A stretch of DNA of 21,588 nucleotides, taken from the IMG/VR virus record IMGVR_UViG_2563366997_000002, one strand, 5' to 3'. The DNA comes from a virus. Its lineage: Duplodnaviria; Heunggongvirae; Uroviricota; Caudoviricetes. The translations under genes were made by a program, and so were the position numbers. Below, in pieces: positions 1 through 20,495 of this stretch (its first letter is position 1; every line of letters begins with the position of its first letter). The notes under the pieces were generated by a model. The model was not told the origin of the DNA. It worked only from the letters and a program-made list of their open reading frames with translations, and made no database searches.

Positions 1-393
1 TCATATTACTGGATAATCATCATCATCCTTCCCTATCCGATTGATAACGAATGTCACTACCCCGACAACTGTAACATCATCCAGGGCCTCACCTTCCAAC
101 GCTTCACCGTCTCGTGTAATAAATGCCCGGCCCATAATTTTTGCAAAATCAGTGCCGCCGCCGTATTGAATTAAAACGGTATCTCCTTGCTTTGGTTTTA
201 CGAAGCAATCCACTACGGCATAGCCGGTTTCTGTTTGTACTATCCGAGTATTGGGGCCGGTACCGCAGAGTGAATCAACGGTCAGACGCCGTTCAACATA
301 GTCAGCAGCTGGCGACGGAAATCCCACGTTATAGCCCTCCGTTTGGGTTGTATAACTGGAACGTGAGCTCATCGCCTTCCTGCGTTGAGACAT
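1..393 (-). CDS. UmuD/ImpA-like S24-family protein (SOS mutagenesis accessory-like)
   Basis: 130-aa ORF whose stop codon is the first 3 bases of the window. Contains GFPSPAADYVE, matching the UmuD/MucA N-terminal cleavage-site region (E. coli UmuD has CGFPSPAADYVE), and a C-terminal VVGVVTFV-type strand pattern like UmuD. The canonical GDSM serine motif is not evident by eye. Nine nt downstream of the preceding small ORF. Confidence 0.6.
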   Translation of the reverse strand: MSQRRKAMSSRSSYTTQTEGYNVGFPSPAADYVERRLTVDSLCGTGPNTRIVQTETGYAVVDCFVKPKQGDTVLIQYGGGTDFAKIMGRAFITRDGEALEGEALDDVTVVGVVTFVINRIGKDDDDYPVI

Positions 394-1103: not shown

Positions 1104-1135
1104 CCCCTTGAGTGTGCCTGCTCAAGGGGGTTTTT
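1104..1135 (+). terminator. putative Rho-independent terminator
   Basis: ccccttgag / loop tgtgcctg / ctcaagggg gives a 9-bp GC-rich stem, followed by TTTTT. The U-tract is present only in the plus orientation. Confidence 0.45.
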
Positions 1136-1150
1136 ATCGCCGTATTGTAC

Positions 1151-1219
1151 TGGCAAATATTTGTAAATAGTCTTCACCCCCACGCCTGTCACATCGGCCA
1201 CACGCGACTGGACAGGCGG
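1151..1219 (-). pseudogene. remnant of a serine DNA-invertase C-terminal HTH (second copy)
   Basis: In frame immediately after the stop of the 1220..1414 ORF, the minus strand reads PPVQSRVADVTGVGVKTIYKYLP. This is about 80% identical at nucleotide level to the HTH segment at 3160..3215 and has no start codon or catalytic domain. Confidence 0.35.
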
Positions 1220-1419
1220 TTAGTCCGGTATGTTTCTCGCGCTACTACTGCTTACGTTAACGTCTGGTAATGATCTAGCGGCGCGACGTAAAGCGGCGTT
1301 GAAAGCAATTATAGTGACCGGCCGGCATTGGTACTTCACACGGTTAGAATGGCTCTGAAATAAAAAAACATCTTCTGGATAGCGTTCTCTTCTACGAGCA
1401 ATGATCCCCTCCACTGGAG
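1220..1419 (-). pseudogene. tyrosine-recombinase-like gene, 3' part (split by IS4)
   Basis: Joining 2846..3079 to 1220..1419 across one copy of the 11-bp target duplication restores a continuous frame (...KSTPPVE-GIIARRRERYPEDVFLF...). The joined protein has an integrase-core-like segment HTGLSAGRLLSIRYDDIDGD...VKS but no downstream HxxR...Y catalytic region. Confidence 0.5.
1409..1419. repeat. IS4 target-site duplication, left copy (CTCCACTGGAG)
   Basis: Identical 11-mer at 2846..2856 directly flanks the other IS4 end. Confidence 0.85.
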
Positions 1420-4159: not shown

Positions 4160-6223
4160 TCAGAAAACGTTAATACGAAAAGCGGGGAGCCAGTCGTAAA
4201 GAGTCACGGATGTGTCATACACCCATATGATTCCAGCGGAAGATCGAACACACCCTCTTGCACCAAGAGTCCGCCCGGAAGGTTTTACAGATGCGCCGCT
4301 CTGAAGTGGGTTTTCTGCTGTCGCATAGGAAACGCGCCCAAAACGTCCAGAGGGGGCGGTCGCCAGGTTAATCAGCACGCCCTTGCCGTCCGAGCTGATC
4401 GCGATGCTCGATATAGCAGGTGGAGCACCAGTCTCATCCGTGTAGCTAAAGCCGTAATTGGCCAGACCGGAGGTGTTGATCGTAGTCGTGTCCAGCACCA
4501 GGTTCGTATACGCTGGGACATTGATTTGTATCTGCGTGGGTGAGTTCCACACGAAACTGGTCGGAACCATCCCTGACCAGCCGCTCGTAAACCACTCCTG
4601 GAGAAGCGCTCTCGCCACAGCTGCTCCGCGCCGGTTCTGGCCCGCACACGTCAAGTGCAGACCGTCTGAAATAAAATCGTACTGGTACAAACTATTGACC
4701 AGCCTGAATTGCTCTTTTCCGTGCAATCGCGTCGACGCCAGTCGCGCGTACTGGCCTGTAAATGCACCATGCCCGTCATTGACATACCCCAGCTGGGTAA
4801 TGGCGATAATCGGCGGTTCGTTTTGACCCGTTCTTGCGATGATGTCGCTGGTGATTTGTCTCTGGTACTGCCTCATCCGTGATTCATACATTCCTTCTCG
4901 TAATCCTGACCAGTCCTCGTCGGACTCTCCCTGCATCCAGTCAACGCAGAGAACAATCGGCAGCCAGCCGCGTGCTTTACAGGCCGTTACGCAGTCTTCG
5001 ATTGAATCGAGCAGATACTGATATACCTGGTTACCCCGTTTCTGGTACTCGTAAGCCTGACCAGACTGCGCACATACGATTGATAGCGTGCGCGGCATGA
5101 TTCCGGTAGCTGCAGCCATATCGCGAATGAAGGTGTTCGCGAGGCCGCTTGCGGCCGTTTCTTTATCTGTCCCACTTACTGCCTCAACCAGTGGCACCAG
5201 AGTAGTGCTGCGTGTCCCTGTACGCCTAACCCCGCCGCTGAGCATGAAAGCGTTATCAGGATATATCGGCGTTGCTGCGACAATGGTTTGATCGGCGTCA
5301 GGACAATATCCTCGAGCGTTGGATTGCCCAGCAGTCACAAAGATAAAACATACAGGCACTGTCTCTGAGTAGGGGTACACAGTAGACCCTGACAAATGAA
5401 GTCCATACTCAGGGAGCTGGTTGGCATCATCGTCGCCACCACCACCGCCATTTCCGTTATTAACAGCTACCAGGCCACCGTCTGAGTAAATCCAGTGCTT
5501 CCCACCAACCGTATAAGCTTCAACGATCTGGTTTGTGGTTGAATCAACCGTCATCCGCCACACTTTTTCACCGCCAATAAACTGCGGTATAGAACCCTCC
5601 CGGCCCAGCGCATAGAGTTCGGATTCTTGTTGGGTTAAAAGTTCGTAATATTTTCCGTCAGGACCGATTTGAATTAATCTGCCGCTTGTATTTAAAAATG
5701 GAGCCACGCGGGAAGTCTCCGGATCATATGCTGCCAGGGTCACGCTGTCTGGCGATACCTGGTATGCGTAGTCGTCACGAACCATCCGCCGTCCGGTTGG
5801 CTGCAGCGTTCCAGCGAGGTTGATATACTCATCGGCCAGAGAGCTTCCGTCCTGACTGCGGACATAGGTTGTTGAACCTGCCGGAATATTCGCAATATCC
5901 GCCTGCGCCGCCGCCAGCGTCATGTACTGCCGGCTGAGAGGGATCAGGTTTTGGCGGGCTTCATCAATAACAGCGTCGGTAGCAGCTGCCATTTTTTTAG
6001 TAGCCCCAATTATCGTATCCTGGGCGTTACCAAAACGATCTATAAAAGTATCGCTTTCGCTGTTCAGGAAATCATCGTACGCCAGGGCGTTATCATTCAG
6101 ATCCTTCATGCTATTTGAAGGTCTTGGATTGCCGGTATTATATCTTTTGTCCATACCTGTTCCTGTCTTCATCTTTTCAATGAAGCAATTAAGATTGACG
6201 CCCCGCCCCTTCAGGGCTAACAT
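4160..6223 (-). CDS. tail-region protein with SGNH/SASA-type esterase domain (putative receptor-modifying tailspike or fibre)
   Basis: Up to 687 aa. Central domain has an SGNH-hydrolase nucleophile block VTAGQSNARGY and a distal DGLH block, as in sialate-O-acetylesterase-like proteins; a fibre-like N-terminal region and a C-terminal beta-rich region flank it. The true start is probably an internal Met (6172, 6154 or 6109), because 6218..6223 overlaps the -10 element of a divergent promoter. Confidence 0.7.
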   Translation of the reverse strand: MLALKGRGVNLNCFIEKMKTGTGMDKRYNTGNPRPSNSMKDLNDNALAYDDFLNSESDTFIDRFGNAQDTIIGATKKMAAATDAVIDEARQNLIPLSRQYMTLAAAQADIANIPAGSTTYVRSQDGSSLADEYINLAGTLQPTGRRMVRDDYAYQVSPDSVTLAAYDPETSRVAPFLNTSGRLIQIGPDGKYYELLTQQESELYALGREGSIPQFIGGEKVWRMTVDSTTNQIVEAYTVGGKHWIYSDGGLVAVNNGNGGGGGDDDANQLPEYGLHLSGSTVYPYSETVPVCFIFVTAGQSNARGYCPDADQTIVAATPIYPDNAFMLSGGVRRTGTRSTTLVPLVEAVSGTDKETAASGLANTFIRDMAAATGIMPRTLSIVCAQSGQAYEYQKRGNQVYQYLLDSIEDCVTACKARGWLPIVLCVDWMQGESDEDWSGLREGMYESRMRQYQRQITSDIIARTGQNEPPIIAITQLGYVNDGHGAFTGQYARLASTRLHGKEQFRLVNSLYQYDFISDGLHLTCAGQNRRGAAVARALLQEWFTSGWSGMVPTSFVWNSPTQIQINVPAYTNLVLDTTTINTSGLANYGFSYTDETGAPPAISSIAISSDGKGVLINLATAPSGRFGRVSYATAENPLQSGASVKPSGRTLGARGCVRSSAGIIWVYDTSVTLYDWLPAFRINVF
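6195..6223 (+). promoter_or_regulatory. putative sigma70 promoter for the HTH/acyltransferase cassette
   Basis: TTGACG, 17-bp spacer, TAACAT, located 9-33 bp upstream of the first plus-strand starts. Confidence 0.4.
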
Positions 6224-11237: not shown

Positions 11238-12319
11238 TGGTTTAGTCCGGGTATTTGCTGGTAGAAAGCATAAGGCTGGACAGCGAAAGCCTCCGGGGGC
11301 ATCAGATAAAGGCGCGCATGGGTGCCGTCACTGTCTCTGATATAAGTCACCTCTGCGATAAGCAATTCGGTGTCAGGCAGCTGCAGACTCGGGATGTTGA
11401 CCGGGATAAGCGTATTCGGCTCCCATAATTTCCCGGATTTATCGCGCCAGGAATCAATCGTCACCGTTAACTGACGGGAACGGCCGTATCGGCGGTTCAT
11501 CTCCCAGTCAATCGCTCGCTGAGCCTGTTGTGAAGCCATCAGTGTACTTTCAACAATAATGATCCGTTTTCGGTAACGCATACTGGCCGCCTCAGGATCG
11601 CGGGCCGTCGCCAGCGTCACCGAATCATAAGCCGTATCTGGCGAGAATCCTGCAATCGGCGAAATGCTCATCGATACGCCGACGTAATCAGAAAAGCGGT
11701 CAGCCATCGAACGGCGGTAATAAGCCTGTTCGATATTTACCCCTTCTGCGATACCGCTGGCCGCGCGCTTTGTCCCCACCCGGGTCAGAAATAAGTTACC
11801 GTCAGGCTGATCGTAATAAAGCAATGCCGACCAGCGGGAGACACGATCAAGTATTTCCTGTGGCGATTCCCCCCAGTTCAGGGAAAATTGCGGAACTTTC
11901 ACCAGATCATCAACGTCTGTACTTACGCCAATGTTGTAATGGGATGCGAGGCGGGAGGCTATATCAAGCGCATTACTGTTATTGATGACGTTATTTGGCC
12001 ATTCAGCAGAGCAATCAACGAGATCTGCGCACTTACTGCGGCCTGAGGCTCTGACTTCATGGCGCGAACGGGAAATAGCAGGCGACCAGTCATCAACATA
12101 CCCCGTCACTACCAGGTCGTTACCAAGCTTTACCTGACAAGGCATCCCTTCCTTTACCAGCTGCTTCTGGTCACTTCCCGGAAAATAATCCATCAGTCCC
12201 AGGTCAAAATCGGAGGGAAAACGCTCAATGCCACGGGTCACCCGCACAGAGTCCCATCCTTCAATGATTTTTCCGCCCACTGTCAGGGAGACAATATCCT
12301 GATCATTATCCGTACTCAT
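11234..12319 (-). CDS. baseplate hub protein (Mu P/gp44, P2 gpD late-control-D family)
   Basis: 361 aa; size, order (hub, then spike, gp46, J) and general resemblance to the phage tail protein D family. It does not resemble a major capsid protein. Confidence 0.7.
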   Translation of the reverse strand: MSTDNDQDIVSLTVGGKIIEGWDSVRVTRGIERFPSDFDLGLMDYFPGSDQKQLVKEGMPCQVKLGNDLVVTGYVDDWSPAISRSRHEVRASGRSKCADLVDCSAEWPNNVINNSNALDIASRLASHYNIGVSTDVDDLVKVPQFSLNWGESPQEILDRVSRWSALLYYDQPDGNLFLTRVGTKRAASGIAEGVNIEQAYYRRSMADRFSDYVGVSMSISPIAGFSPDTAYDSVTLATARDPEAASMRYRKRIIIVESTLMASQQAQRAIDWEMNRRYGRSRQLTVTIDSWRDKSGKLWEPNTLIPVNIPSLQLPDTELLIAEVTYIRDSDGTHARLYLMPPEAFAVQPYAFYQQIPGLNQ

Positions 12320-12702
12320 TGTCTCAACACCTTCATCGTCGTCGGCATAAATGCCGGATGCGGTACGCTGGCCTCCTGTATCAGTTCATTTGCCCGCGAG
12401 GCATCCTGATACAGGCGGTTGGCCAGTACCAGGGCAGGAACCGGCACCGCAGTATTGATTTGCATCAACTCACTCAGTCCGGATGAAGTCTGAGCCATGG
12501 TATTCAGAAAAGCGGTTCTCACGTCCATCAATGCCGTATAAAGATCATCATCGCCACGGTCGCCCGCCAGTAGTAACGCGGTATCCAGTTGCCCGGCCAC
12601 GCGTTGAGTGATTTCTTCGGCCTCATTACGACTGGTTGGGTTGTAATCTGCAGCAGCATCCGTCATGGCTCCGGTACATAGCACTACGATCAGCGTGTTC
12701 AT
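12316..12702 (-). CDS. hypothetical protein, possibly the 3' remnant of a DNA-circulation (Mu N-like) gene
   Basis: 128 aa from the first ATG; an internal ATG at 12666 has a GGAG SD. Its stop overlaps the hub start (ATGA). It overlaps the decoration-protein ORF by 41-77 nt in another frame, consistent with a deletion junction. Confidence 0.4.
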   Translation of the reverse strand: MNTLIVVLCTGAMTDAAADYNPTSRNEAEEITQRVAGQLDTALLLAGDRGDDDLYTALMDVRTAFLNTMAQTSSGLSELMQINTAVPVPALVLANRLYQDASRANELIQEASVPHPAFMPTTMKVLRQ

Positions 12703-13135
12703 GGTGCCAGCCAGTTGCTGGCTGCTTTCGGAACGCTGGTAAAGGTGCCTGGGCGCTGTCTTTCAGGAAGATGGCCAGCGGACGTAGTGCTGTTTTCAGT
12801 TCCGGCGCAGTCCAGGAATCGTCAAAAATAATATGATTCTGGTTGAACTCGCCCATCAGGTACAGGCCGCCGGACTGATCGCCATGGGTGGAAGCGTCAA
12901 CATCATCAACCAGAATGGCCGCTGGCGTCTCGCTACCATCCGTTGCGGTTTTCACACTGGCTGTATATTTGCCACTGGCGGTGATCATGCCAAGCACAGT
13001 GCCACGCTTATACACACCGCCGGTGATCGTGCCGGTGTCAGTGACCAGTTGCAGCGTACCGGCAATTAACTGATCCGGCACAAACACTGAACTCTTCATG
13101 CCAGGTGCAAAGGCATTCTGACCAAATTGATCCAT
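12626..13135 (-). CDS. head decoration protein (lambda gpD-like) with aberrant 3' extension
   Basis: First about 125 aa fit the head-decoration pattern (...AAILVDDVD...GLYLMGEFN...LKTALRPLAIFLK). The last about 40 aa (PLPAFRKQPATGWHHEHADRSAMYRSHDGCCCRLQPNQS) look like out-of-frame read-through. Start overlaps the scaffold-like gene stop (TAATG). Confidence 0.6.
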   Translation of the reverse strand: MDQFGQNAFAPGMKSSVFVPDQLIAGTLQLVTDTGTITGGVYKRGTVLGMITASGKYTASVKTATDGSETPAAILVDDVDASTHGDQSGGLYLMGEFNQNHIIFDDSWTAPELKTALRPLAIFLKDSAQAPLPAFRKQPATGWHHEHADRSAMYRSHDGCCCRLQPNQS

Positions 13136-13725
13136 TATTTCTCTCCTTTAATGGAGTTGTAGAGGCCGGTCATCTGGTTTACCAGTGCCGATTTACCGTT
13201 CTCTTTCTTGCCGCCATCCGGATTCAGACGGACATCATGGCTTTCCTGCATGCGCTGATCGAGAGAGCGCCCGCGCGTTGCCTTTGGTTGCAAGGCTGGC
13301 GCCGTGGATGCCAGAACATCGATAGCGGCGGTAGAGCTCATCCCGGTATTGAATGCGAGTGAAGCGGCCAGTGACGGATTCGCCGCAGCGTGCTTACTGC
13401 CGAAGATACGGGCGCAACGTTTACGCTCGGCGGCGCGGGCATTTTTCACCGCTTTGCTTTCTTTGCGGTCATCGTCGCCGTCATCTTCGGAATCGTCATC
13501 GTCTTCAGCCGCATCCAGGTCGTCACCGTCATCTTCAGCGTCATCATCACGATCGTCGTTTTCCGCGTCATCTTCGCGTTCATCGTCCCCGGCATCATCT
13601 TCGCGCTCATCCTCTTCCGCGCGACGGCCTTTCGCTTTTTTGGCCTTTTTGTCCTCTTCCTCTTCGGAAGCAGTCGCGCCACGGCCAATAAGATGAGCAA
13701 AACTAAAAGTCTTTTTCTTCGCCAT
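13135..13725 (-). CDS. acidic scaffold-like head protein (Nu3 position)
   Basis: 196 aa from ATG at 13725, one nt after the protease stop; extremely D/E-rich central tract. Position between protease and decoration protein. Confidence 0.55.
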   Translation of the reverse strand: MAKKKTFSFAHLIGRGATASEEEEDKKAKKAKGRRAEEDEREDDAGDDEREDDAENDDRDDDAEDDGDDLDAAEDDDDSEDDGDDDRKESKAVKNARAAERKRCARIFGSKHAAANPSLAASLAFNTGMSSTAAIDVLASTAPALQPKATRGRSLDQRMQESHDVRLNPDGGKKENGKSALVNQMTGLYNSIKGEK

Positions 13726-13726
13726 T

Positions 13727-14593
13727 TCAGGCTCCTGTTTTTTCAAGTAAGTTTCTGAACGCAGCATCAGGAGGACACACCTCATCAGCCAGTCCAAGTT
13801 CCACACCATCAGCAGCCATAAAACAGGCAGCCTGAGTACTTTTGATAACCTTTGCGCTAATCCCCCGATTTCTGGCGACGGTATTCACAAACAATTCGCC
13901 CATGGTGTTGATGTCCTGCTGAATAGCCGCCAGCGCTTCATCTGACAGCTCTCTCAGCGGTGCCCCCTCAGCCTTACGGGAACCGTAGGTGATGATGGTG
14001 ACTTTGAGGCCGTCATCTTTTATCCGCTGGGTCCAGTCAAGGTGCATAGTGATCACACCAACTGAACCCACACCACCGGTTCGGGGAACAGAAATCCGGT
14101 CCGCCGCACTGGCAATCGCATAGGCGGCGGAATAGGCGCTTTCCGTCAGAATGGCATGGATGGGCTTTTTCCCGCGGGCGCCATAAATGACATCGACCAG
14201 ATCGAAACATCCGGCGACCTCGCCTCCTGGCGAATCAATATCCAGGCAGATCCCTGTAATATCGGGGTCTTCCATCGCAGTCAGGAAGGCCTGACGAATG
14301 CCGTCATAGCCTGTCATGCCACTGTATGGGCGCAGGCTACCCAGCTTCTGCACCAGGGTCCCACATATCGGGATGACAGCGACGCCCAACACATTGTCAT
14401 AACCCGGGTCGCTACGGGATTCCCGCCCCCTGTTATCGTCGTATCCATACCAGTCATCATCCATGGCAAGAGAGGATTCGATTTTACTGATGCCAAACCG
14501 GTCCATAACGGATGCCATGATGACTTCAGCTTTACTTGGGTGCAGCGCCAGCGGTGTATTAAAAAGGCGCTGGGCCAGATGAGGTAGATTCAC
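13727..14593 (-). CDS. head maturation protease (S49/ClpP-like, lambda gpC family)
   Basis: 288 aa; recognised by eye as the S49/ClpP-like prohead protease family by overall sequence pattern, size and position after the portal; start overlaps the portal stop. Confidence 0.85.
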   Translation of the reverse strand: MNLPHLAQRLFNTPLALHPSKAEVIMASVMDRFGISKIESSLAMDDDWYGYDDNRGRESRSDPGYDNVLGVAVIPICGTLVQKLGSLRPYSGMTGYDGIRQAFLTAMEDPDITGICLDIDSPGGEVAGCFDLVDVIYGARGKKPIHAILTESAYSAAYAIASAADRISVPRTGGVGSVGVITMHLDWTQRIKDDGLKVTIITYGSRKAEGAPLRELSDEALAAIQQDINTMGELFVNTVARNRGISAKVIKSTQAACFMAADGVELGLADEVCPPDAAFRNLLEKTGA

Positions 14594-16224
14594 TTTTCCT
14601 CCGGATCGGTAATTGTCTGGCTGGCGAACTGGTCCGCCTGCGCCCAGCTAGGTAATGGAAGTCCGCGCTTCAGGCAGGACTCAATTTCCCGCTGGCGCTG
14701 ATCAAGTATCTCTTCCCAGTCCTCACCCACGTTTTCACCCACTTCAATTTCGAGAGTGGAAAGGCCGGCATCGAGGCCGAGAATGGCGCCTTTTTTCTCT
14801 GCCACCGGATCAACCCATCCTCGCCCCGGCCCCATCCAGCGCGCACGGGAATACGCTGCCCGGGCATCAACAAAATCAGGGGCATCATTAGGTAGAGGTA
14901 AATCCTCGTTATCGTGAACTTCCTCCACAAAGGCCGTCAGAAGCGGCTGAGCGGTACCCATGGAGAAATCATCACGTCGGCGGGTGAGCGTTTTCCATGC
15001 CTCCAGCAAGGAAGATCGCGCAGAGCTGTAATTCACATCAGACCAGTCCTGTGTAACCTGCTGAGGAGATAACCCCGTACCGGATGAGAAATTACGCAAT
15101 ACTGCAGACTCGAAAACCTCAAAGTTGCTGTAAGGGCGGGCAGCGTTGACCGTTGTTATTCTCTCCCCTGGATAAAGGATCGGCATACGGGCGCCATTCT
15201 GCAGCGTCAAACGGCGATCATTATGAAACTCTGCACGACCATCCTGGTATGCTCCCAATCCCTCTTCGAAGTTTTCCCCCAGCGCGGACTGGATCATTTC
15301 GGGATCGTATGGAGACTCAATATACGCGGCGAAGATAGCATTCAGAATTGCTGCTTCCAGCTCGCTCTGGTCGTACTTCACCAGCATCTTCAGACGTTGC
15401 ACTACTGGAGTCAGAATGCCATTCCCCCGATGCTGAGCTCCACGCTCATGGTCAAAGTCGTGCACAACGTGCGGGCGCCCCCATGCGGTTTCGCGCGGGA
15501 TTCGTCGCCATGTCATTGTTTTGGCGCCACTCCACCAGTCACCGATATGTGCTTCACGTATGTGATAAGCCACAGGTGCGCCGTCAGCATCAATTTCAAC
15601 GCCGCCGCGGATATTCGGCATATCAAAATTCTGCTGCGGGTTACTGAGTCTGTCGGGATCAACAACCTGCACCGTCGTGGCATAACGCCCCTTACCTGGT
15701 CCAAGGCGATCGGTGCGATACTGAAGCACCATCAGGGCATCGCCATCAATCAGCTTGTGGCGAAAGGCCAGACGCAACATTTGTGGAACGGTTAGCTTGC
15801 GCTCAACGTCACAATAACGGCCTGTGTCGTATGCCCAGGTTCTCCAGTGGGAAGCGAGTGCTTTTCCGTACTCTTCCGCCCATACTGCGTCAAAACTTTT
15901 ATTACCTGTCATCATCCGTAATACACGATAGTCAGGCTTCATGATCGGACGGAAATTGGCGCCGACCGCATTATCAAGCAGGCGAGTTATGGCACCATTG
16001 GCCCATCCATCATTTCGGACCAGATCCCGCGCACGGGAAACTATACGGTCACGGTAGATATTAATTTCGTTATCCGGTGACCATAGTGCGGGCTGCCAGT
16101 TCGCCAGTTGATCGCTGAAGGAATCCCCGGCGTCATATGGCACCCGGCTACCGCCCGTCAACATGCTGGGTTTTGGTGCCTGATAAGGTCTCCCGTCAGG
16201 ACCAAGGATTTGCACTTTATTCAT
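14590..16224 (-). CDS. portal protein (lambda gpB family)
   Basis: 544 aa; size and position between gpW-like and protease genes. Confidence 0.9.
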   Translation of the reverse strand: MNKVQILGPDGRPYQAPKPSMLTGGSRVPYDAGDSFSDQLANWQPALWSPDNEINIYRDRIVSRARDLVRNDGWANGAITRLLDNAVGANFRPIMKPDYRVLRMMTGNKSFDAVWAEEYGKALASHWRTWAYDTGRYCDVERKLTVPQMLRLAFRHKLIDGDALMVLQYRTDRLGPGKGRYATTVQVVDPDRLSNPQQNFDMPNIRGGVEIDADGAPVAYHIREAHIGDWWSGAKTMTWRRIPRETAWGRPHVVHDFDHERGAQHRGNGILTPVVQRLKMLVKYDQSELEAAILNAIFAAYIESPYDPEMIQSALGENFEEGLGAYQDGRAEFHNDRRLTLQNGARMPILYPGERITTVNAARPYSNFEVFESAVLRNFSSGTGLSPQQVTQDWSDVNYSSARSSLLEAWKTLTRRRDDFSMGTAQPLLTAFVEEVHDNEDLPLPNDAPDFVDARAAYSRARWMGPGRGWVDPVAEKKGAILGLDAGLSTLEIEVGENVGEDWEEILDQRQREIESCLKRGLPLPSWAQADQFASQTITDPEEK

Positions 16225-16495: not shown

Positions 16496-18628
16496 TTATT
16501 GCGGCAGGAGTTTAGAAATGTTCTTACGCTTAACAGGAGCCATAGCCTCATCCACGATGGCACCCGGTAATTCGTAATTGATTTTTTCTTCTGGCTCGGC
16601 TGGCGCCGGCAGGAACTTATCGGGATCGGCCTGAAGGTTAGCGGCCCGAACATTGAGTTTTAATCCCATATGTTTCAGCCCACACAACGCGGCATAGCTG
16701 TAAACGAGGCAGTCGAGTGCTTCGTTCGCCCGTCCGGGGATAGGCTCCCAGACACTGAATCGCTGACCGGCCACCACTTTATAAACCAGTCGCTCGGCCA
16801 GCAGCTGGTTGAAATAGCCGAGGTCACGATCATCCGGGAAGTGCATATAGCCCGCACCGGCAGTACCTAAAGCTGGCGGTTCAAGATGCAGACGACCACG
16901 GACAACATCTTTCGCAGAGTTCACGCCAAGTATAATTGGCCTGAAGCTGGCTTTACTTTTTGATGTCGGTCGCTTGGTTGGCCAGACGGGGTTGCGTTTC
17001 CCACCCTGCGCAGATTCGCCCTTGATAGCCCAGACGCGGCGCCCAAGGCGATCTTTGCAGAACTCATAAACCTTTTGCGTGTGGTGACCGCCGGAGTCCA
17101 TACATGCAGCCAGAATATTCAGCCCTCGCCCGTCGCCGCGTCGCCATATCTGTTTCAGGTACGCATCGAGGCGCTTCCAGGGTTCCTCAGTCTCCAGATC
17201 GCCATAAATGACGTCATGCGCAACTGACCACGATTCCTCGTCCCGCCCCCAGCCAGTGATCGTGATTTCGAATCGGTCATCCTGAGTATCGACGCCCGCA
17301 GTTAACAATGCCACGCCATCAGGAACGACGGCCGGGAAGACTTCACGGCGCGCCAGCAGGACATCAACCGGGAGCTGTTTCCCGTGGTTAGGCCGGTGCG
17401 GCAACCCCATCTGGGTGTTCCACCAGGCCTGTTCCTTATCCGGATCCCCTTTCGCATCGAGGTATTTCTTTGCAATGTCCGATGGCTTGTCTTTTTGCCA
17501 GGGACTGAAGAGTTTTGACGCCTGGTACCCGGCGTGGTGATTATCCAGCGCCTCGGCCCCGCAGTCCGGGCAAATCGCCCGGTATACGGCATGCCGTTCC
17601 GACTCTGACCAGCGCCAGACGGCATCAACACTGCCCTCGTCTCCTTCATGCCATTTCTGGTCGTATTCCATTAATGGTGAATGGCGGGAACCACAACATT
17701 CAAACGGTTTGGTCTGATGCCAGCGGATTGTCTGTAATGCCCGCAGACGCTCACCCTCTGACCAGCCAGCACCACAACATTCACAATGGATCATGGCCGC
17801 TTTGGTCAGGTGCTTATCACCTTCTTTTGGCCATTGAACATGTTTGAAGAAATCAAGGAACTGTCGGTGCCCGCAATGGGGGCAAACTACAGAGGCCCGC
17901 CGCTGATCTGAATCTTCGTAACTGTCAGCAATCCGGCTTTCATCTTCGATCGTCGGCGAACAAGCCCGCACGGACAGCCAGTTAAGGCCAAATGTGGCGG
18001 TTCGCTCTTCCGCCAGAGCGATGGGATCGCCCTCACGGGTAATCGGATATTTATCCACCTCATCTGCCAGCAGAACACGGATCGGACGGCGCGCAAGGTT
18101 ATCTGGACTACCGGCGCCGGCCAGCGCCAGAAATCCGCCGGTGAAAGCTTTATACAGAATGGTTTCTTTTGAACTCTTCTGCTTTGAGTCACCTATGATG
18201 TTACGCAGAACTGGCGTTACCCTAACCAGCGGGCTGATGCGTTCTTTGGAAAACTGCTCAGCGGCCTCTTCCTTCGGCTGCAGGAGCAAAATCGGACATG
18301 GGTCGAGGTGCGCAAAATAACCAAACAGGTTTTCCAGCAGCGCGGTTTTCATTAACTGGGTACAGCACATCACGGTGATAATGTGGACGCCCGATTCCGT
18401 CGCGGCCAGCATAGGACCGCGGGCAATTTCAACCGTTGATGTTTCCCAGTTCCCGGAGGTACTGCCAGCTTCTTTCGCCAGCTTCCGGTAGTCATCGGCC
18501 CATTGCGGGACGCTGATCCGCGGCGGCGGTGTCCACCCTTTCCGGACACTCAGTTGAAGACGCTCAATCTTCCGCTGGGTTAAACTCTGGTTCTCCGAGG
18601 ACTGAGATATGTTTGTGGACATGTTCAA
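16496..18628 (-). CDS. terminase large subunit (lambda gpA family)
   Basis: 710 aa; contains the VDTQDDRFEITITGWGRDEESW segment I recognise from gpA-type terminases; 5' end overlaps the small-subunit gene as in lambda. Confidence 0.9.
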   Translation of the reverse strand: MNMSTNISQSSENQSLTQRKIERLQLSVRKGWTPPPRISVPQWADDYRKLAKEAGSTSGNWETSTVEIARGPMLAATESGVHIITVMCCTQLMKTALLENLFGYFAHLDPCPILLLQPKEEAAEQFSKERISPLVRVTPVLRNIIGDSKQKSSKETILYKAFTGGFLALAGAGSPDNLARRPIRVLLADEVDKYPITREGDPIALAEERTATFGLNWLSVRACSPTIEDESRIADSYEDSDQRRASVVCPHCGHRQFLDFFKHVQWPKEGDKHLTKAAMIHCECCGAGWSEGERLRALQTIRWHQTKPFECCGSRHSPLMEYDQKWHEGDEGSVDAVWRWSESERHAVYRAICPDCGAEALDNHHAGYQASKLFSPWQKDKPSDIAKKYLDAKGDPDKEQAWWNTQMGLPHRPNHGKQLPVDVLLARREVFPAVVPDGVALLTAGVDTQDDRFEITITGWGRDEESWSVAHDVIYGDLETEEPWKRLDAYLKQIWRRGDGRGLNILAACMDSGGHHTQKVYEFCKDRLGRRVWAIKGESAQGGKRNPVWPTKRPTSKSKASFRPIILGVNSAKDVVRGRLHLEPPALGTAGAGYMHFPDDRDLGYFNQLLAERLVYKVVAGQRFSVWEPIPGRANEALDCLVYSYAALCGLKHMGLKLNVRAANLQADPDKFLPAPAEPEEKINYELPGAIVDEAMAPVKRKNISKLLPQ

Positions 18629-19127
18629 TCAGCACCTCTGTCATCCTGTCCGCCGGCACATTCAGATCGGCGGCTATCAGCGGTGCCACGCGTGAAGGCC
18701 AGTTCAGCCAGGCATCACGCTGCTGGCGAAAGGCGTTAAACAGAACCTCCTCGGCGATGGCCAATTCAATTGTCTGGCCGCTGTCTTTTTCATACTGGAG
18801 CTTTGCCTGCAGGGCCATGTAATTTTCACGGATCCGCGCGGCCTCTTCCCTGGAAAGGACTGCACCTTCTGTAAGCATTATCTGGCGAACGGTTTCATCA
18901 ATTTCATCGTCGCCATCATTCCGGGGTGCTGGGGCTTTTTTCTTCTTCGCGTTTGATGCCCGCGGATCTTTTCCATCACGGTTTTTCTTCAGCGCGGCAT
19001 CGCTCGCCTCAACATCAATCAGGTCGCCATCCATGACGATAAACCGACCAGCCTTGATCCATCGGCCAATAGTCTTGCGATCGACGCCTGAATGTTGCGC
19101 GTACTGACTCTGGTTCATCGTGGTCAT
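18564..19127 (-). CDS. terminase small subunit (lambda Nu1-like)
   Basis: 187 aa; N-terminal HTH-like segment (DRKTIGRWIKAGRFIV) like Nu1; immediately downstream of a repeat-rich putative cos region. Confidence 0.8.
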   Translation of the reverse strand: MTTMNQSQYAQHSGVDRKTIGRWIKAGRFIVMDGDLIDVEASDAALKKNRDGKDPRASNAKKKKAPAPRNDGDDEIDETVRQIMLTEGAVLSREEAARIRENYMALQAKLQYEKDSGQTIELAIAEEVLFNAFRQQRDAWLNWPSRVAPLIAADLNVPADRMTEVLIEHVHKHISVLGEPEFNPAED

Positions 19128-19273
19128 GGGACATCACCTGGGACATTTTTGGGGTGGGACATTTACCTGGGACATTTTTTCAATGTCCCACACGAATGTC
19201 CCACTGGAATAAATGGAATAATCCGTGCTGGCTCTGGCGTGGCTGGCGATCCCTTGGGGTGGGACATGGGACA
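19128..19273. repeat. putative cosB-like terminase-binding repeat cluster (TGGGACAT motif)
   Basis: TGGGACAT direct copies at 19139, 19155, 19168 and 19260 (plus GGGACAT at 19128), and inverted copies ATGTCCCA at 19183 and 19196, all within 150 bp upstream of the small-terminase start. Confidence 0.45.
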
Positions 19274-19374
19274 CAAAATAAAAGTTTGTAGCTAGGAAAA
19301 CACTGCGGCGCGCAATGCCCGTGCCTTACAAAAGTCTCAGGAAGGACCCAAACCCTATGGGGTAGGTATTCAGG

Positions 19375-19899
19375 TCATTTTGCCGTTCGAATCGCTTCCT
19401 CAATCGCCCTACTCAGCGCGCCGGGCATTAAGCCGGCTGCCATTGACCGTGAGCGGTTCATGTAGTCAAGCGTAGGCGTAACAGGTAGAGCATCACCAAA
19501 CCTCACCAGCAGCTTAGGAGCACGCTGTTTCCGCTTTGGTCTGCGCGTACCATTCGCTGAGCGCCGGGCTCGTTTCTTTTTCGCCTTCTTCGGTTTACGC
19601 CTCTGCCAGACAGCATCAACACCATTGACCTCACCTACGAACACATTCGGCTTCGCTTTCAACTGCGACAGCTTATTTCGCGGCATGTTGCCGTATTTGT
19701 TCAGTTTGATGTTCTTTGGATTGAGCAGCGCCTGGCTGTTCAGTTTATGTTCACCACCAAATTCAAAGGGTTCGAGATATTCAGCGGCGACATCGCGCAC
19801 AAAGACTTTTGCGCGGAGGTTGTTCTTTCTGGCGCCAGCAGAGCCCACTGAGTTGACGGTGAACGGCGTCGGCGATTCCAGTTTTCGCCCCAGTGCCAC
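19375..19899 (-). CDS. hypothetical highly basic protein (174 aa)
   Basis: Long ORF between the integrase remnant and the cos-like region, same strand as the late operon; Lys/Arg-rich tract RRKPKKAKKKRARRSANGTRRPKRKQRAPK; no Cys. No family recognised; could be spurious. Confidence 0.35.
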   Translation of the reverse strand: MALGRKLESPTPFTVNSVGSAGARKNNLRAKVFVRDVAAEYLEPFEFGGEHKLNSQALLNPKNIKLNKYGNMPRNKLSQLKAKPNVFVGEVNGVDAVWQRRKPKKAKKKRARRSANGTRRPKRKQRAPKLLVRFGDALPVTPTLDYMNRSRSMAAGLMPGALSRAIEEAIRTAK

Positions 19900-20495
19900 C
19901 TTTTGCGCTGCGGCGATATCAGCGTGGTTATGTACCAGGTAATCCGTGTGTTGGTGTCGATAAGTTTCCTAAACCCCAGCGCGACCGCTACATAACTGAT
20001 GAAGAGTACATAGCTATCTTCACTCATGCGACACCTGCAGTTAAAGCCGCGATGGAAATTGCGTATCTTTGCGCTGCAAGGGTATCTGATGTTCTTAAAA
20101 TGAACTGGAATCAGATTCTTGATAAAGGAATTTTCATACAGCAAGGTAAAACTGGTATTAAACAGATCAAAGCCTGGACTGAGCGTCTTAGTGCGGCTGT
20201 GGATATTTGCAGGGAATGGGGACAGGATGGCCCTGTTATCAGGACAATGTATGGTGAGCGTTATTCATACAAGGGATTTAATGAAGCATGGAGAAAAGCG
20301 AGAAACGCGGCTTCTGAAGAACTTGGTAGGCCACTTGATTGCACCTTCCATGATCTAAAGGCTAAAGGGATCTCAGACTATGAAGGATCTGGCAGGGATA
20401 AGCAAAAATTCAGTGGTCATAAGACAGAATCACAGGTACTTGTTTACGACAGGAAAGTTAAAATCAGCCCAACGTTGAACAAGAAAATGAGATGA
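19893..20495 (+). pseudogene. tyrosine integrase, catalytic C-terminal domain only (5'-truncated)
   Basis: 200-aa ORF with an integrase catalytic-domain pattern (HDLKAKGISD ... SGHKTESQVLVYDR with the nucleophile Tyr). The frame is closed by a stop at 19860..19862 and no upstream frame encodes an integrase N-terminal domain. Ends 112 bp from the tRNA 3' end. Confidence 0.8.

Follow-up and report, generated by a model that had tools for sequence, protein, structure and literature searches.

A Putative cosB Packaging Site with an Undescribed Recognition Sequence Upstream of a Small-Terminase Gene in a Prophage Remnant of Escherichia coli HS

What is the role of the dense cluster of octamer repeats that lies immediately upstream of a candidate small-terminase gene (terS) in the viral record IMGVR_UViG_2563366997_000002? 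This stretch of 21,588 nucleotides (nt), called the window below, corresponds to positions 2061463-2083050 of the Escherichia coli HS genome (NC_009800.1). A first-pass annotation of the window took the repeats for binding sites of the cosB type with a specificity unlike that of phage lambda, or alternatively for an operator array. Our data support the former suggestion: with a probability of roughly 85%, judged from sequence comparisons, the cluster is the cosB element, or packaging-initiation recognition site, of a lambda-style cohesive-end site (cos), and its octamers are putative binding sites of the small terminase (TerS). The recognition sequence differs from that of lambda and is so far undescribed in the literature covered. 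A search there for the octamer returned unrelated primer sequences only, a search for the cosQ sequence returned nothing usable, and no literature description was found of the ATGTCCCA sites, nor of the GGTAACA and TTCACAC sites found in related loci. We base the assignment on the non-random clustering of the repeats, their position beside terS and a gpA-type large-terminase gene (terL), the selective conservation of the motif, its swap between close relatives, and its unmixed co-variation with TerS. The lambda-like geometry, a cosN 12-mer identical to the overhang of Serratia phage BZS1, and the presence of the array in satellites without an adjacent terS argue for the same conclusion.

The octamer TGGGACAT occurs on the plus strand in five exact direct copies (starting at 19127, 19139, 19155, 19168, and 19260), supplemented by a degenerate direct copy, TGGGACAC, which matches at 7/8 positions and starts at 19267. 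Two further copies (19183-19190 and 19196-19203) are inverted, with TGGGACAT on the minus strand and ATGTCCCA on the plus strand, which gives seven exact copies and one 7/8 copy within 19127-19274. The first-pass annotation had counted four to five direct and two inverted copies in 19128-19273, and both the count and, to within 1 bp, the range were right. Its spacing of 13-16 bp is approximately correct: the start-to-start distances are 12, 16, 13, 15, 13, then 64, and then 7 bp, so that the 56-bp gap, the 7-bp tandem pair, and the resulting grouping into three blocks (2 + 2 inverted + 4, in the terS direction) had been missed. The consensus of the site is aATGTCCCA, 7-8 bp long, and the copy at 19127 shares one base with the terS start codon. 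Elsewhere in the window there is a single exact copy, at 4514. Against these seven exact copies in 150 bp, the most clustered 8-mer of any kind reached 2-4 copies in 200 dinucleotide-preserving shuffles, and the next best real 8-mer cluster of the window has four. Since the motif contains ATG, gene callers can extend terS or call an open reading frame (ORF) on the opposite strand. Examples are the 67-aa plus-strand ORF 19092-19295 and, in loci L002, L014-L016, and L095, forms of terS prolonged upstream in frame; none has a family match, and they are most likely artefacts whose ATG lies within ATGTCCCA (read as Met-Ser-His/Gln).

A set of about 190 related loci, drawn from genomes of E. coli, from GTDB genomes, and from IMG/VR, follows one common layout (Table 1), in which positions are counted from base 1 of the cohesive end (19318) in the terS direction. 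The 12 nt GCATTGCGCGCC within the invariant 20-mer GCACGGGCATTGCGCGCCGC match in full the annotated cosL of the cultured Serratia myovirus vB_SspM_BZS1 (MT843275), whose genome record starts with GCATTGCGCGCC and finishes with GGGTCCTTCC and, at its very end, GCACGG. The 12-nt 5' overhang of BZS1 was determined with PhageTerm and checked by polymerase chain reaction and sequencing across the prophage cos (PMC7556043). An assignment of base 1 to the first G of GGGCATT, made by analogy with GGGC of lambda, was replaced by this determined end, which lies 2 nt further in. The symmetric cosN-like site that the first-pass annotation had proposed to look for between 19275 and 19375 is thus present as far as identity with the BZS1 end is concerned; its two-fold symmetry is weak (6/16 by a hand count) and is not taken as evidence. 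Among 80 contigs listed of the 116 matched, only one (L145, IMGVR_UViG_3300024582_000047) ends in the cosN block, at GCATTGCGCGCCGC. This end lies 2 nt past the BZS1 overhang, exactly where the relatives begin to differ, and probably reflects a break in the assembly rather than the end of virion DNA.

On the side away from terS, the heptamer GGGTCCT at -31 provides a candidate cosQ element about 30 bp upstream of cosN. It sits in the block GGGTCCTTCC (19340-19349), invariant in 69/69 distinct relatives and separated by 17 bp from GCACGGGCATTGCGCGCCGC, and it was also found in the satellites and in BZS1. On the terS side, the eight sites of the array form the 2 + 2 (inverted) + 4 layout, the first of them at a set distance from cosN. 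Indeed, a tandem pair of the class-specific motif begins at the same distance from the cohesive end, within 3 bp, in every specificity class, and the spacer that follows it is about 56-85 bp long in the classes with the full layout (A-E). The individual sites of the last block are 19168-19175, 19155-19162, 19139-19146, and 19127-19134, the last of them overlapping the terS ATG. The 56-bp spacer holds, beside the inverted pair, two copies of TGGAATAA exactly 10 bp apart (19205-19212 and 19215-19222). The TGTCCCA class of E. coli, Kluyvera, and Salmonella has kept them and other classes have not, and they could be a bend or host-factor site in place of the lambda I1 segment.

Table 1. Features of the cos region, the terminase genes, and their surroundings; R3, R2, R1, I1, and I2 are names of lambda subsites
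Feature	Coordinates	Strand	Position in cos (bp)	Lambda position (bp)	Remarks
cosQ-like heptamer GGGTCCT	19343-19349	-	-31	-30 (48473-48479)	starts 31 bp upstream of cohesive-end base 1
cosN block GCACGGGCATTGCGCGCCGC	19305-19324	-			20-mer invariant in relatives; in 116 IMG/VR contigs
Predicted 12-nt 5' cohesive end GCATTGCGCGCC	19307-19318	-			same as BZS1 overhang
T-rich spacer cosN-cosB, I2-like	19274-19304	-	15-45		partly conserved: TGTTTT, AGCTA, T-tract
GTTTTC in T-rich spacer	19296-19301		18-23	18-23	
Distal tandem pair gTGTCCCA-TGTCCCA, R3-like	19260-19274	-	46-59	50-65 (R3)	first TerS site set; 7-bp period; fully conserved in class A
56-bp spacer, R3-like to R2-like	19204-19259	.			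lambda I1 position; poorly conserved except TTATTCC repeats and GAT
Inverted pair, TGGGACAT n5 TGGGACAT in terS direction, R2-like	19183-19203	+	116-135	108-123 (R2)	conserved
Four direct ATGTCCCA sites, R1-like	19127-19175	-	144-192	152-167 (R1)	conserved, spacers vary
Small-terminase ATG			192	191 (Nu1)	
terS, small terminase, 187 aa	18564-19127	-			N-terminal winged helix-turn-helix, disordered basic linker, helical C-terminal domain
terL, gpA-family large terminase (ATPase + endonuclease)	16496-18628	-			Pfam GpA_ATPase 5.6e-66, GpA_nuclease 3.4e-81
ORF174, conserved upstream ORF (phrog_1924)	19375-19917 (also given as 19375-19899)	-			truncated here
Truncated integrase gene	19917-20495	+			790 bp from repeats
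Satellite cos features	13618-13900, 13977-14866, 18902-19200				coordinates of locus L099

The order of the subsites is the same as in the lambda cos (cosQ-cosN-I2-cosB, where cosB is R3-I1-R2-R1), the distances are nearly the same, and in both cases the middle block runs opposite to the blocks on either side. The lambda heptamer at 48473-48479 is taken to be cosQ (Wieczorek and Feiss 2001). The definitions of the lambda R sites are those of PMC9026076, and the I2 segment of lambda, with its poly-dA/dT tracts, spans bp 18-50 (PMC4856287). The two systems also share a gpA-family large terminase (TerL) and a winged helix-turn-helix (HTH) N-domain of TerS (modeled here), and the 12-nt 5' overhang of lambda has a predicted counterpart in the window. 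They differ in the recognition sequence, ATGTCCCA being unrelated to the CGTTTCC-type 16-mers of lambda, in the number of sites (2-4 short ones at each R position and eight in total, in contrast to three in lambda), and in that no consensus site for IHF was found at the I1 position. The cohesive end of the window, GCATTGCGCGCC, is identical to that of lambda, GGGCGGCGACCT, at 5/12 positions, and thus falls outside the "lambda-like" group, which is defined by cohesive-end similarity to GGGCGGCGACCT with the left half conserved (PMC4669245).

Conservation of the array was assessed in 69 distinct cos regions with the same TerS class (class A) from Escherichia, Kluyvera, Citrobacter, Salmonella, Raoultella, and others. 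The motif columns have a mean conservation of 0.992 and 77% of them are invariant, compared with 0.842 and 31% for the other cosB columns (Fisher p = 4e-8), and hence purifying selection, as read from this alignment, acts on the motif only and not on the cosB spacers. In more distant relatives from Rahnella, Ewingella, and Hafnia (class C), whose TerS proteins are 64-68% identical, TGTCCCA is kept and the spacers are otherwise unalignable.

The motif also follows the DNA-binding domain of TerS. Loci L004 and L006 have the same cosQ and cosN, a TerL 99% identical, and an identical C-terminal half of TerS, and their TerS N-domain is only about 50% identical; in both, every site is swapped for GGTAACA/TGTTACC and the layout is kept as 2 + 2 (inverted) + 3, with the inverted pair TGTTACC n5 TGTTACC. 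In a sample of about 105 distinct cos regions sharing cosN, the recognition helix V-D-R-K-T-[IV]-[GT]-R-W (69 distinct regions) is accompanied by 5-8 TGTCCCA sites and 0 GGTAACA, and the helix V-S-R-K-T-V-T-x-W (34 distinct regions) by 5-10 GGTAACA sites and 0 TGTCCCA, while the single region with M-S-R-R-A-F-Y-N-W has seven TTCACA-type sites (TTCACAC). The motifs are never mixed within one region, and relatives with the same TerS N-domain always keep the repeats; loss of the repeats from phages with the same terminase had been named at the outset as an observation that would speak against cosB. The TerS residues that differ line up with residues 17-24 of lambda, its recognition helix, and among them is the position of E24, which is known to determine specificity (PMC9026076). 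Moreover, GGTAACA follows the N-domain even where the C-domain of TerS and the TerL are of the divergent BZS1 type (44-49% TerL identity).

Two kinds of rearranged loci bear on the function of the array. Satellite islands of E. coli have cosQ and cosN followed by a TGTCCCA array at the usual distance, with 8-9 sites of mixed orientation and no adjacent terS; this array is located at the end far from the primase gene. The islands (L099, NZ_CP070229.1 3668000-3689000; also L219) are about 17 kb long and are bounded by 21-bp attachment (att) repeats, either at tRNA-Ile or beside thiM. They code for an integrase, an Icd-like protein, a primase, SSB, ProQ/FinO, and PerC. Two cos sites of the same orientation were observed in them, 5.3 kb apart, with identical cosQ and cosN and different cosB. 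One has TTTACAC repeats followed by an ORF resembling the TerS C-domain and by a 177-aa TerS homolog (phrog_57, E 3e-14), and the other bears a TGTCCCA array, as do loci of the window's class. The satellite may thus combine a TerS/cosB pair of its own with a helper-type cosB.

In the second kind, represented by BZS1 (L220, 45-310), Citrobacter phage phiNP (L222), L101, L102, L156, L171, and L218, the start of terS comes about 75 bp after the cohesive end. It is preceded by three GGTAACA sites, and another 5-6 are found within the gene, about 200 bp downstream. The intragenic GGTAAC repeats encode a Gly-Asn-Lys/Arg linker, so that protein-binding DNA repeats and a peptide repeat are combined in one sequence. 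In class B2 the distal group is immediately upstream of terS and the remaining 5-6 direct sites are inside the gene, and in class D mostly direct sites are present.

BZS1 and phiNP are the closest cultured relatives of the window's terminase (TerL 49% and TerS 32% identical). BZS1 shares the 12-nt GCATTGCGCGCC, and both phages share the cosQ-like GGGTCCTTCC and the upstream phrog_1924 ORF with the window lineage; they differ from it in the GGTAACA-class N-domain of TerS and in the compact, partly intragenic cosB. The paper on BZS1 gives its cohesive ends with no mention of cosB, cosN, or repeats (PMC7556043), and packaging is not discussed in the paper on phiNP.

The genes next to the array encode the putative small and large terminase subunits. 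TerS, annotated as hypothetical in RefSeq, matches phrog_57 "terminase small subunit" over residues 1-186 (E 1.7e-34). Its winged HTH comprises aa 1-51, with the recognition helix at about 17-26 (VDRKTIGRWIK), and its C-terminal helical domain is predicted to pair with TerL; the model thus suggests the gpNu1-type architecture, with an N-terminal winged HTH and a helical oligomerization and TerL-binding region. TerS had earlier been called Nu1-like. At the sequence level this does not hold: TerS has no Pfam match above noise, including PF07471 (Phage_Nu1), no NCBIfam family, and only noise in a PDB sequence search. At the level of fold it does, as the best structural matches of the modeled N-domain are winged-HTH domains of small terminases. 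Other structural neighbors are BldC, Xis (Pukovnik Xis), and AlpA, which bind direct repeats cooperatively. TerL is 28% identical to lambda gpA over the full length and is expected to be the enzyme that nicks cosN.

In the mechanism that we infer for this element (TerS binding, fold-back, and nick positions), the winged-HTH N-domains of the TerS encoded immediately downstream would dock on the 7-8-bp sites. At bp 46-59, the tandem pair would anchor the gpA-type TerL over cosN, 45 bp away, where its staggered nicks would produce the 12-nt 5' overhang GCATTGCGCGCC. The inverted pair and the four direct sites, beyond the 56-bp spacer, would fold back on the distal pair and stabilize a multi-subunit terminase-DNA complex, as R3-I1-R2-R1 does in lambda. 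Packaging would then run through terS and terL and stop at the next cosQ/cosN.

Several observations weigh against the cosB assignment or against parts of this mechanism. Similarity to lambda is low outside the layout: the whole cos regions agree at 40/115 ungapped positions (shuffle p ~0.03, a weak signal), and an hhalign comparison of TerS with lambda Nu1 covers only residues 4-31 (28 residues) with a probability of 33%. The Foldseek E-values for the N-domain are not significant, and no cultured phage with a close TerS was found in the phage collection (best 33% identity). A DNA search of the same collection returned no close relative and just a 71-bp cosN match to phiNP. The IHF site that the first-pass annotation had suggested between 19275 and 19375 was dropped, since the consensus WATCARNNNNTTR has no match with up to one mismatch anywhere in 19128-19375, IHF sites being degenerate; a hairpin of the lambda type in the spacer therefore remains putative. 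The 12-16 bp spacings of the sites are not helically phased and fit a wrapped or filamentous complex at least as well as the lambda dimer across a bend. Finally, the co-variation of motif and helix could in part reflect linkage within one mosaic module, because the N-domain is encoded within 200 bp of the repeats. Linkage alone is hardly the explanation, as argued by comparison of the loci: the motif is selectively conserved, satellites have the array without terS, the BZS1/phiNP class is rearranged, and class C is diverged.

The best-surviving alternative concerns the mechanism only and leaves the identity of the site the same. The sites would still be cosB, and the complex formed on them would be a head-to-tail TerS filament of the Xis/BldC type, or DNA wrapped around a TerS oligomer, with no IHF hairpin and with the inverted pair as the filament boundary. 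Eight short sites in place of three 16-bp R sites, the 12-16 bp spacings combined with a 7-bp tandem pair, and the missing IHF consensus agree with such a complex, as does the cooperative binding of tandem repeats by Pukovnik Xis and BldC among the structural neighbors of TerS. The number and orientation of the proximal sites also vary among classes (D, B2, and the satellites). However, the block layout coincides with R3-I1-R2-R1 of lambda in position and orientation and is kept in two independent specificities, and we regard a filament or wrapped complex as a realistic option with less than even odds.

Far less probable is an operator or autoregulatory array, on which TerS or a repressor would control terS and the late operon and which would have no packaging role. 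The last site overlaps the terS start codon, the array spans the 5' untranslated region, and BldC, Xis, and AlpA, which are among the nearest structural relatives of the N-domain, are transcription factors with cooperative binding to direct repeats. Yet a scan of 18900-19600 found no sigma-70-like promoter, the region lies within the late operon in lambdoid relatives, downstream of Q and the lysis genes, and the distance from the array to cosN is fixed in all classes. In addition, satellites have the array beside cosN without a downstream terS, and the BZS1/phiNP class has most copies inside the terS coding sequence; the operator alternative of the first-pass annotation is not supported. A scan for terminators gave just two terminator-like matches, both within genes and on the wrong strand. 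A secondary effect of the array on terS translation is possible.

The very unlikely idea that integrase arm-type sites, replication iterons, or sites of the phrog_1924 ORF came to lie next to terS by chance draws on the truncated integrase gene nearby and on the conserved ORF that always precedes cos (see also PMC7556043), and it is contradicted by the compared loci: the motif is unrelated to the integrase, which became adjacent through a deletion, intact relatives having lysis, Q, and replication genes in between; the satellite array is at the end far from the primase; and the phrog_1924 ORF is 99% identical in L004 despite the other motif and absent or different in L012, L013, and L095 with the same motif.

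Returning to the cosB assignment, the loci may be compared with lambda, 21, and N15, in which a TerS recognition helix and the cosB repeats matched to it set the specificity, while cosN, cosQ, and TerL form an interchangeable background (PMC4669245). Similarly, at least three such pairs (TGTCCCA, GGTAACA, and TTCACAC) are predicted here on one cosN, and the BZS1/phiNP-type arrangement resembles that of N15, with a simple cosB and rR2 inside gene 1. In contrast to those phages, the present lineage is a different one (a myovirus), and its specificities are predicted from sequence. A broader generalization is attractive and tentative, and we give it somewhat less than even credence. The whole cos family would be a modular specificity system, in which one cosQ/cosN/TerL chassis accepts at least three exchangeable cassettes of TerS N-domain and cosB (TGTCCCA, GGTAACA, and TTCACAC/TTTACAC). 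The cassettes would be freely rearranged, including sites moved into terS as Gly-Asn-Lys repeats, and would be exploited by the 17-kb E. coli satellites with two cos sites of different specificity, one copying the TGTCCCA array of the helper and the other paired with the satellite TerS homolog.

Phage-inducible chromosomal islands (PICIs) found in Gram-negative bacteria use a helper-type cosN and an element at the cosB position for packaging by the helper (PMC6739421, PMC9026076), and the E. coli islands are alike in this respect. Unlike PICIs in which Rpp acts with TerS, they copy the TGTCCCA array of the helper and have a second cos (TTTACAC) next to their own TerS homolog. If the modular system is real, it is the cos-phage counterpart of the TerS hijacking by Staphylococcus aureus pathogenicity islands (SaPIs), with no Rpp needed.

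The known picture of cos packaging is unchanged by these results. They give a conserved non-coding region a probable function and identify a RefSeq "hypothetical protein" as a putative small terminase, in a widespread lineage of enterobacterial prophages. Natural matched swaps of protein and DNA specificity on a constant cosN and TerL are material for dissecting how terminase chooses viral DNA, and a possible use is the design of orthogonal cos-packaging systems. The motif classes also predict which prophages can mobilize which satellites or chromosomal cos relics, such as that of the commensal strain HS.

The HS element itself is an at least doubly deleted lambdoid myovirus prophage, flanked by yodB and tRNA-Ser/mtfA. 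Below the repeats, the minus strand encodes in order the 187-aa TerS (18564-19127), the gpA-family TerL, gpW, a lambda-family portal protein, and an S49 protease; the baseplate J/gp46/gp47 genes are myovirus hallmarks of the lineage. In intact relatives, such as the TGTCCCA-class prophages of E. coli 2022CK-00450 and strain 100416, the order is Q, the lysis genes, a conserved 212-aa ORF, the intergenic repeat region, terS, and terL, with lysis, Q, and replication genes separating the integrase from the cos region. Compared with these relatives, the HS prophage has no major capsid gene and no tail sheath and tube genes, and its early genes are lost; the head decoration gene is followed almost at once by baseplate genes (12316-12702). 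Because of the deletion, the integrase gene adjoins the repeats: it and ORF174 are both annotated as N-terminally truncated and abut at 19917. The cos/terS/terL block is intact despite these deletions. With the capsid and early genes lost, the HS cos is a relic, itself intact, that could function only if a helper phage with matching specificity were present.

The ORF truncated in HS to ORF174 (phrog_1924, "minor tail protein") is about 212 aa long in full, has a C-terminal half that is basic, and always lies just upstream of cos in this lineage (for example, L002 8854-9492 and p72 of BZS1). A conserved ORF preceding cos was also seen in unrelated phages by the authors of the BZS1 study (PMC7556043), and in our set its variation is independent of the cosB motif. 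Near yodB, at the opposite end of the remnant, RefSeq places a 137-nt "tRNA-OTHER" (1106-1242, minus strand), which may be left over from an attachment site or a tRNA-like element. Four copies of GAAGATGA within 150 bp (about 13480-13630) make up the window's second strongest 8-mer cluster; they lie inside the hypothetical ORF 13135-13725, flanked by the protease and decoration-protein genes, and probably represent a coding repeat.

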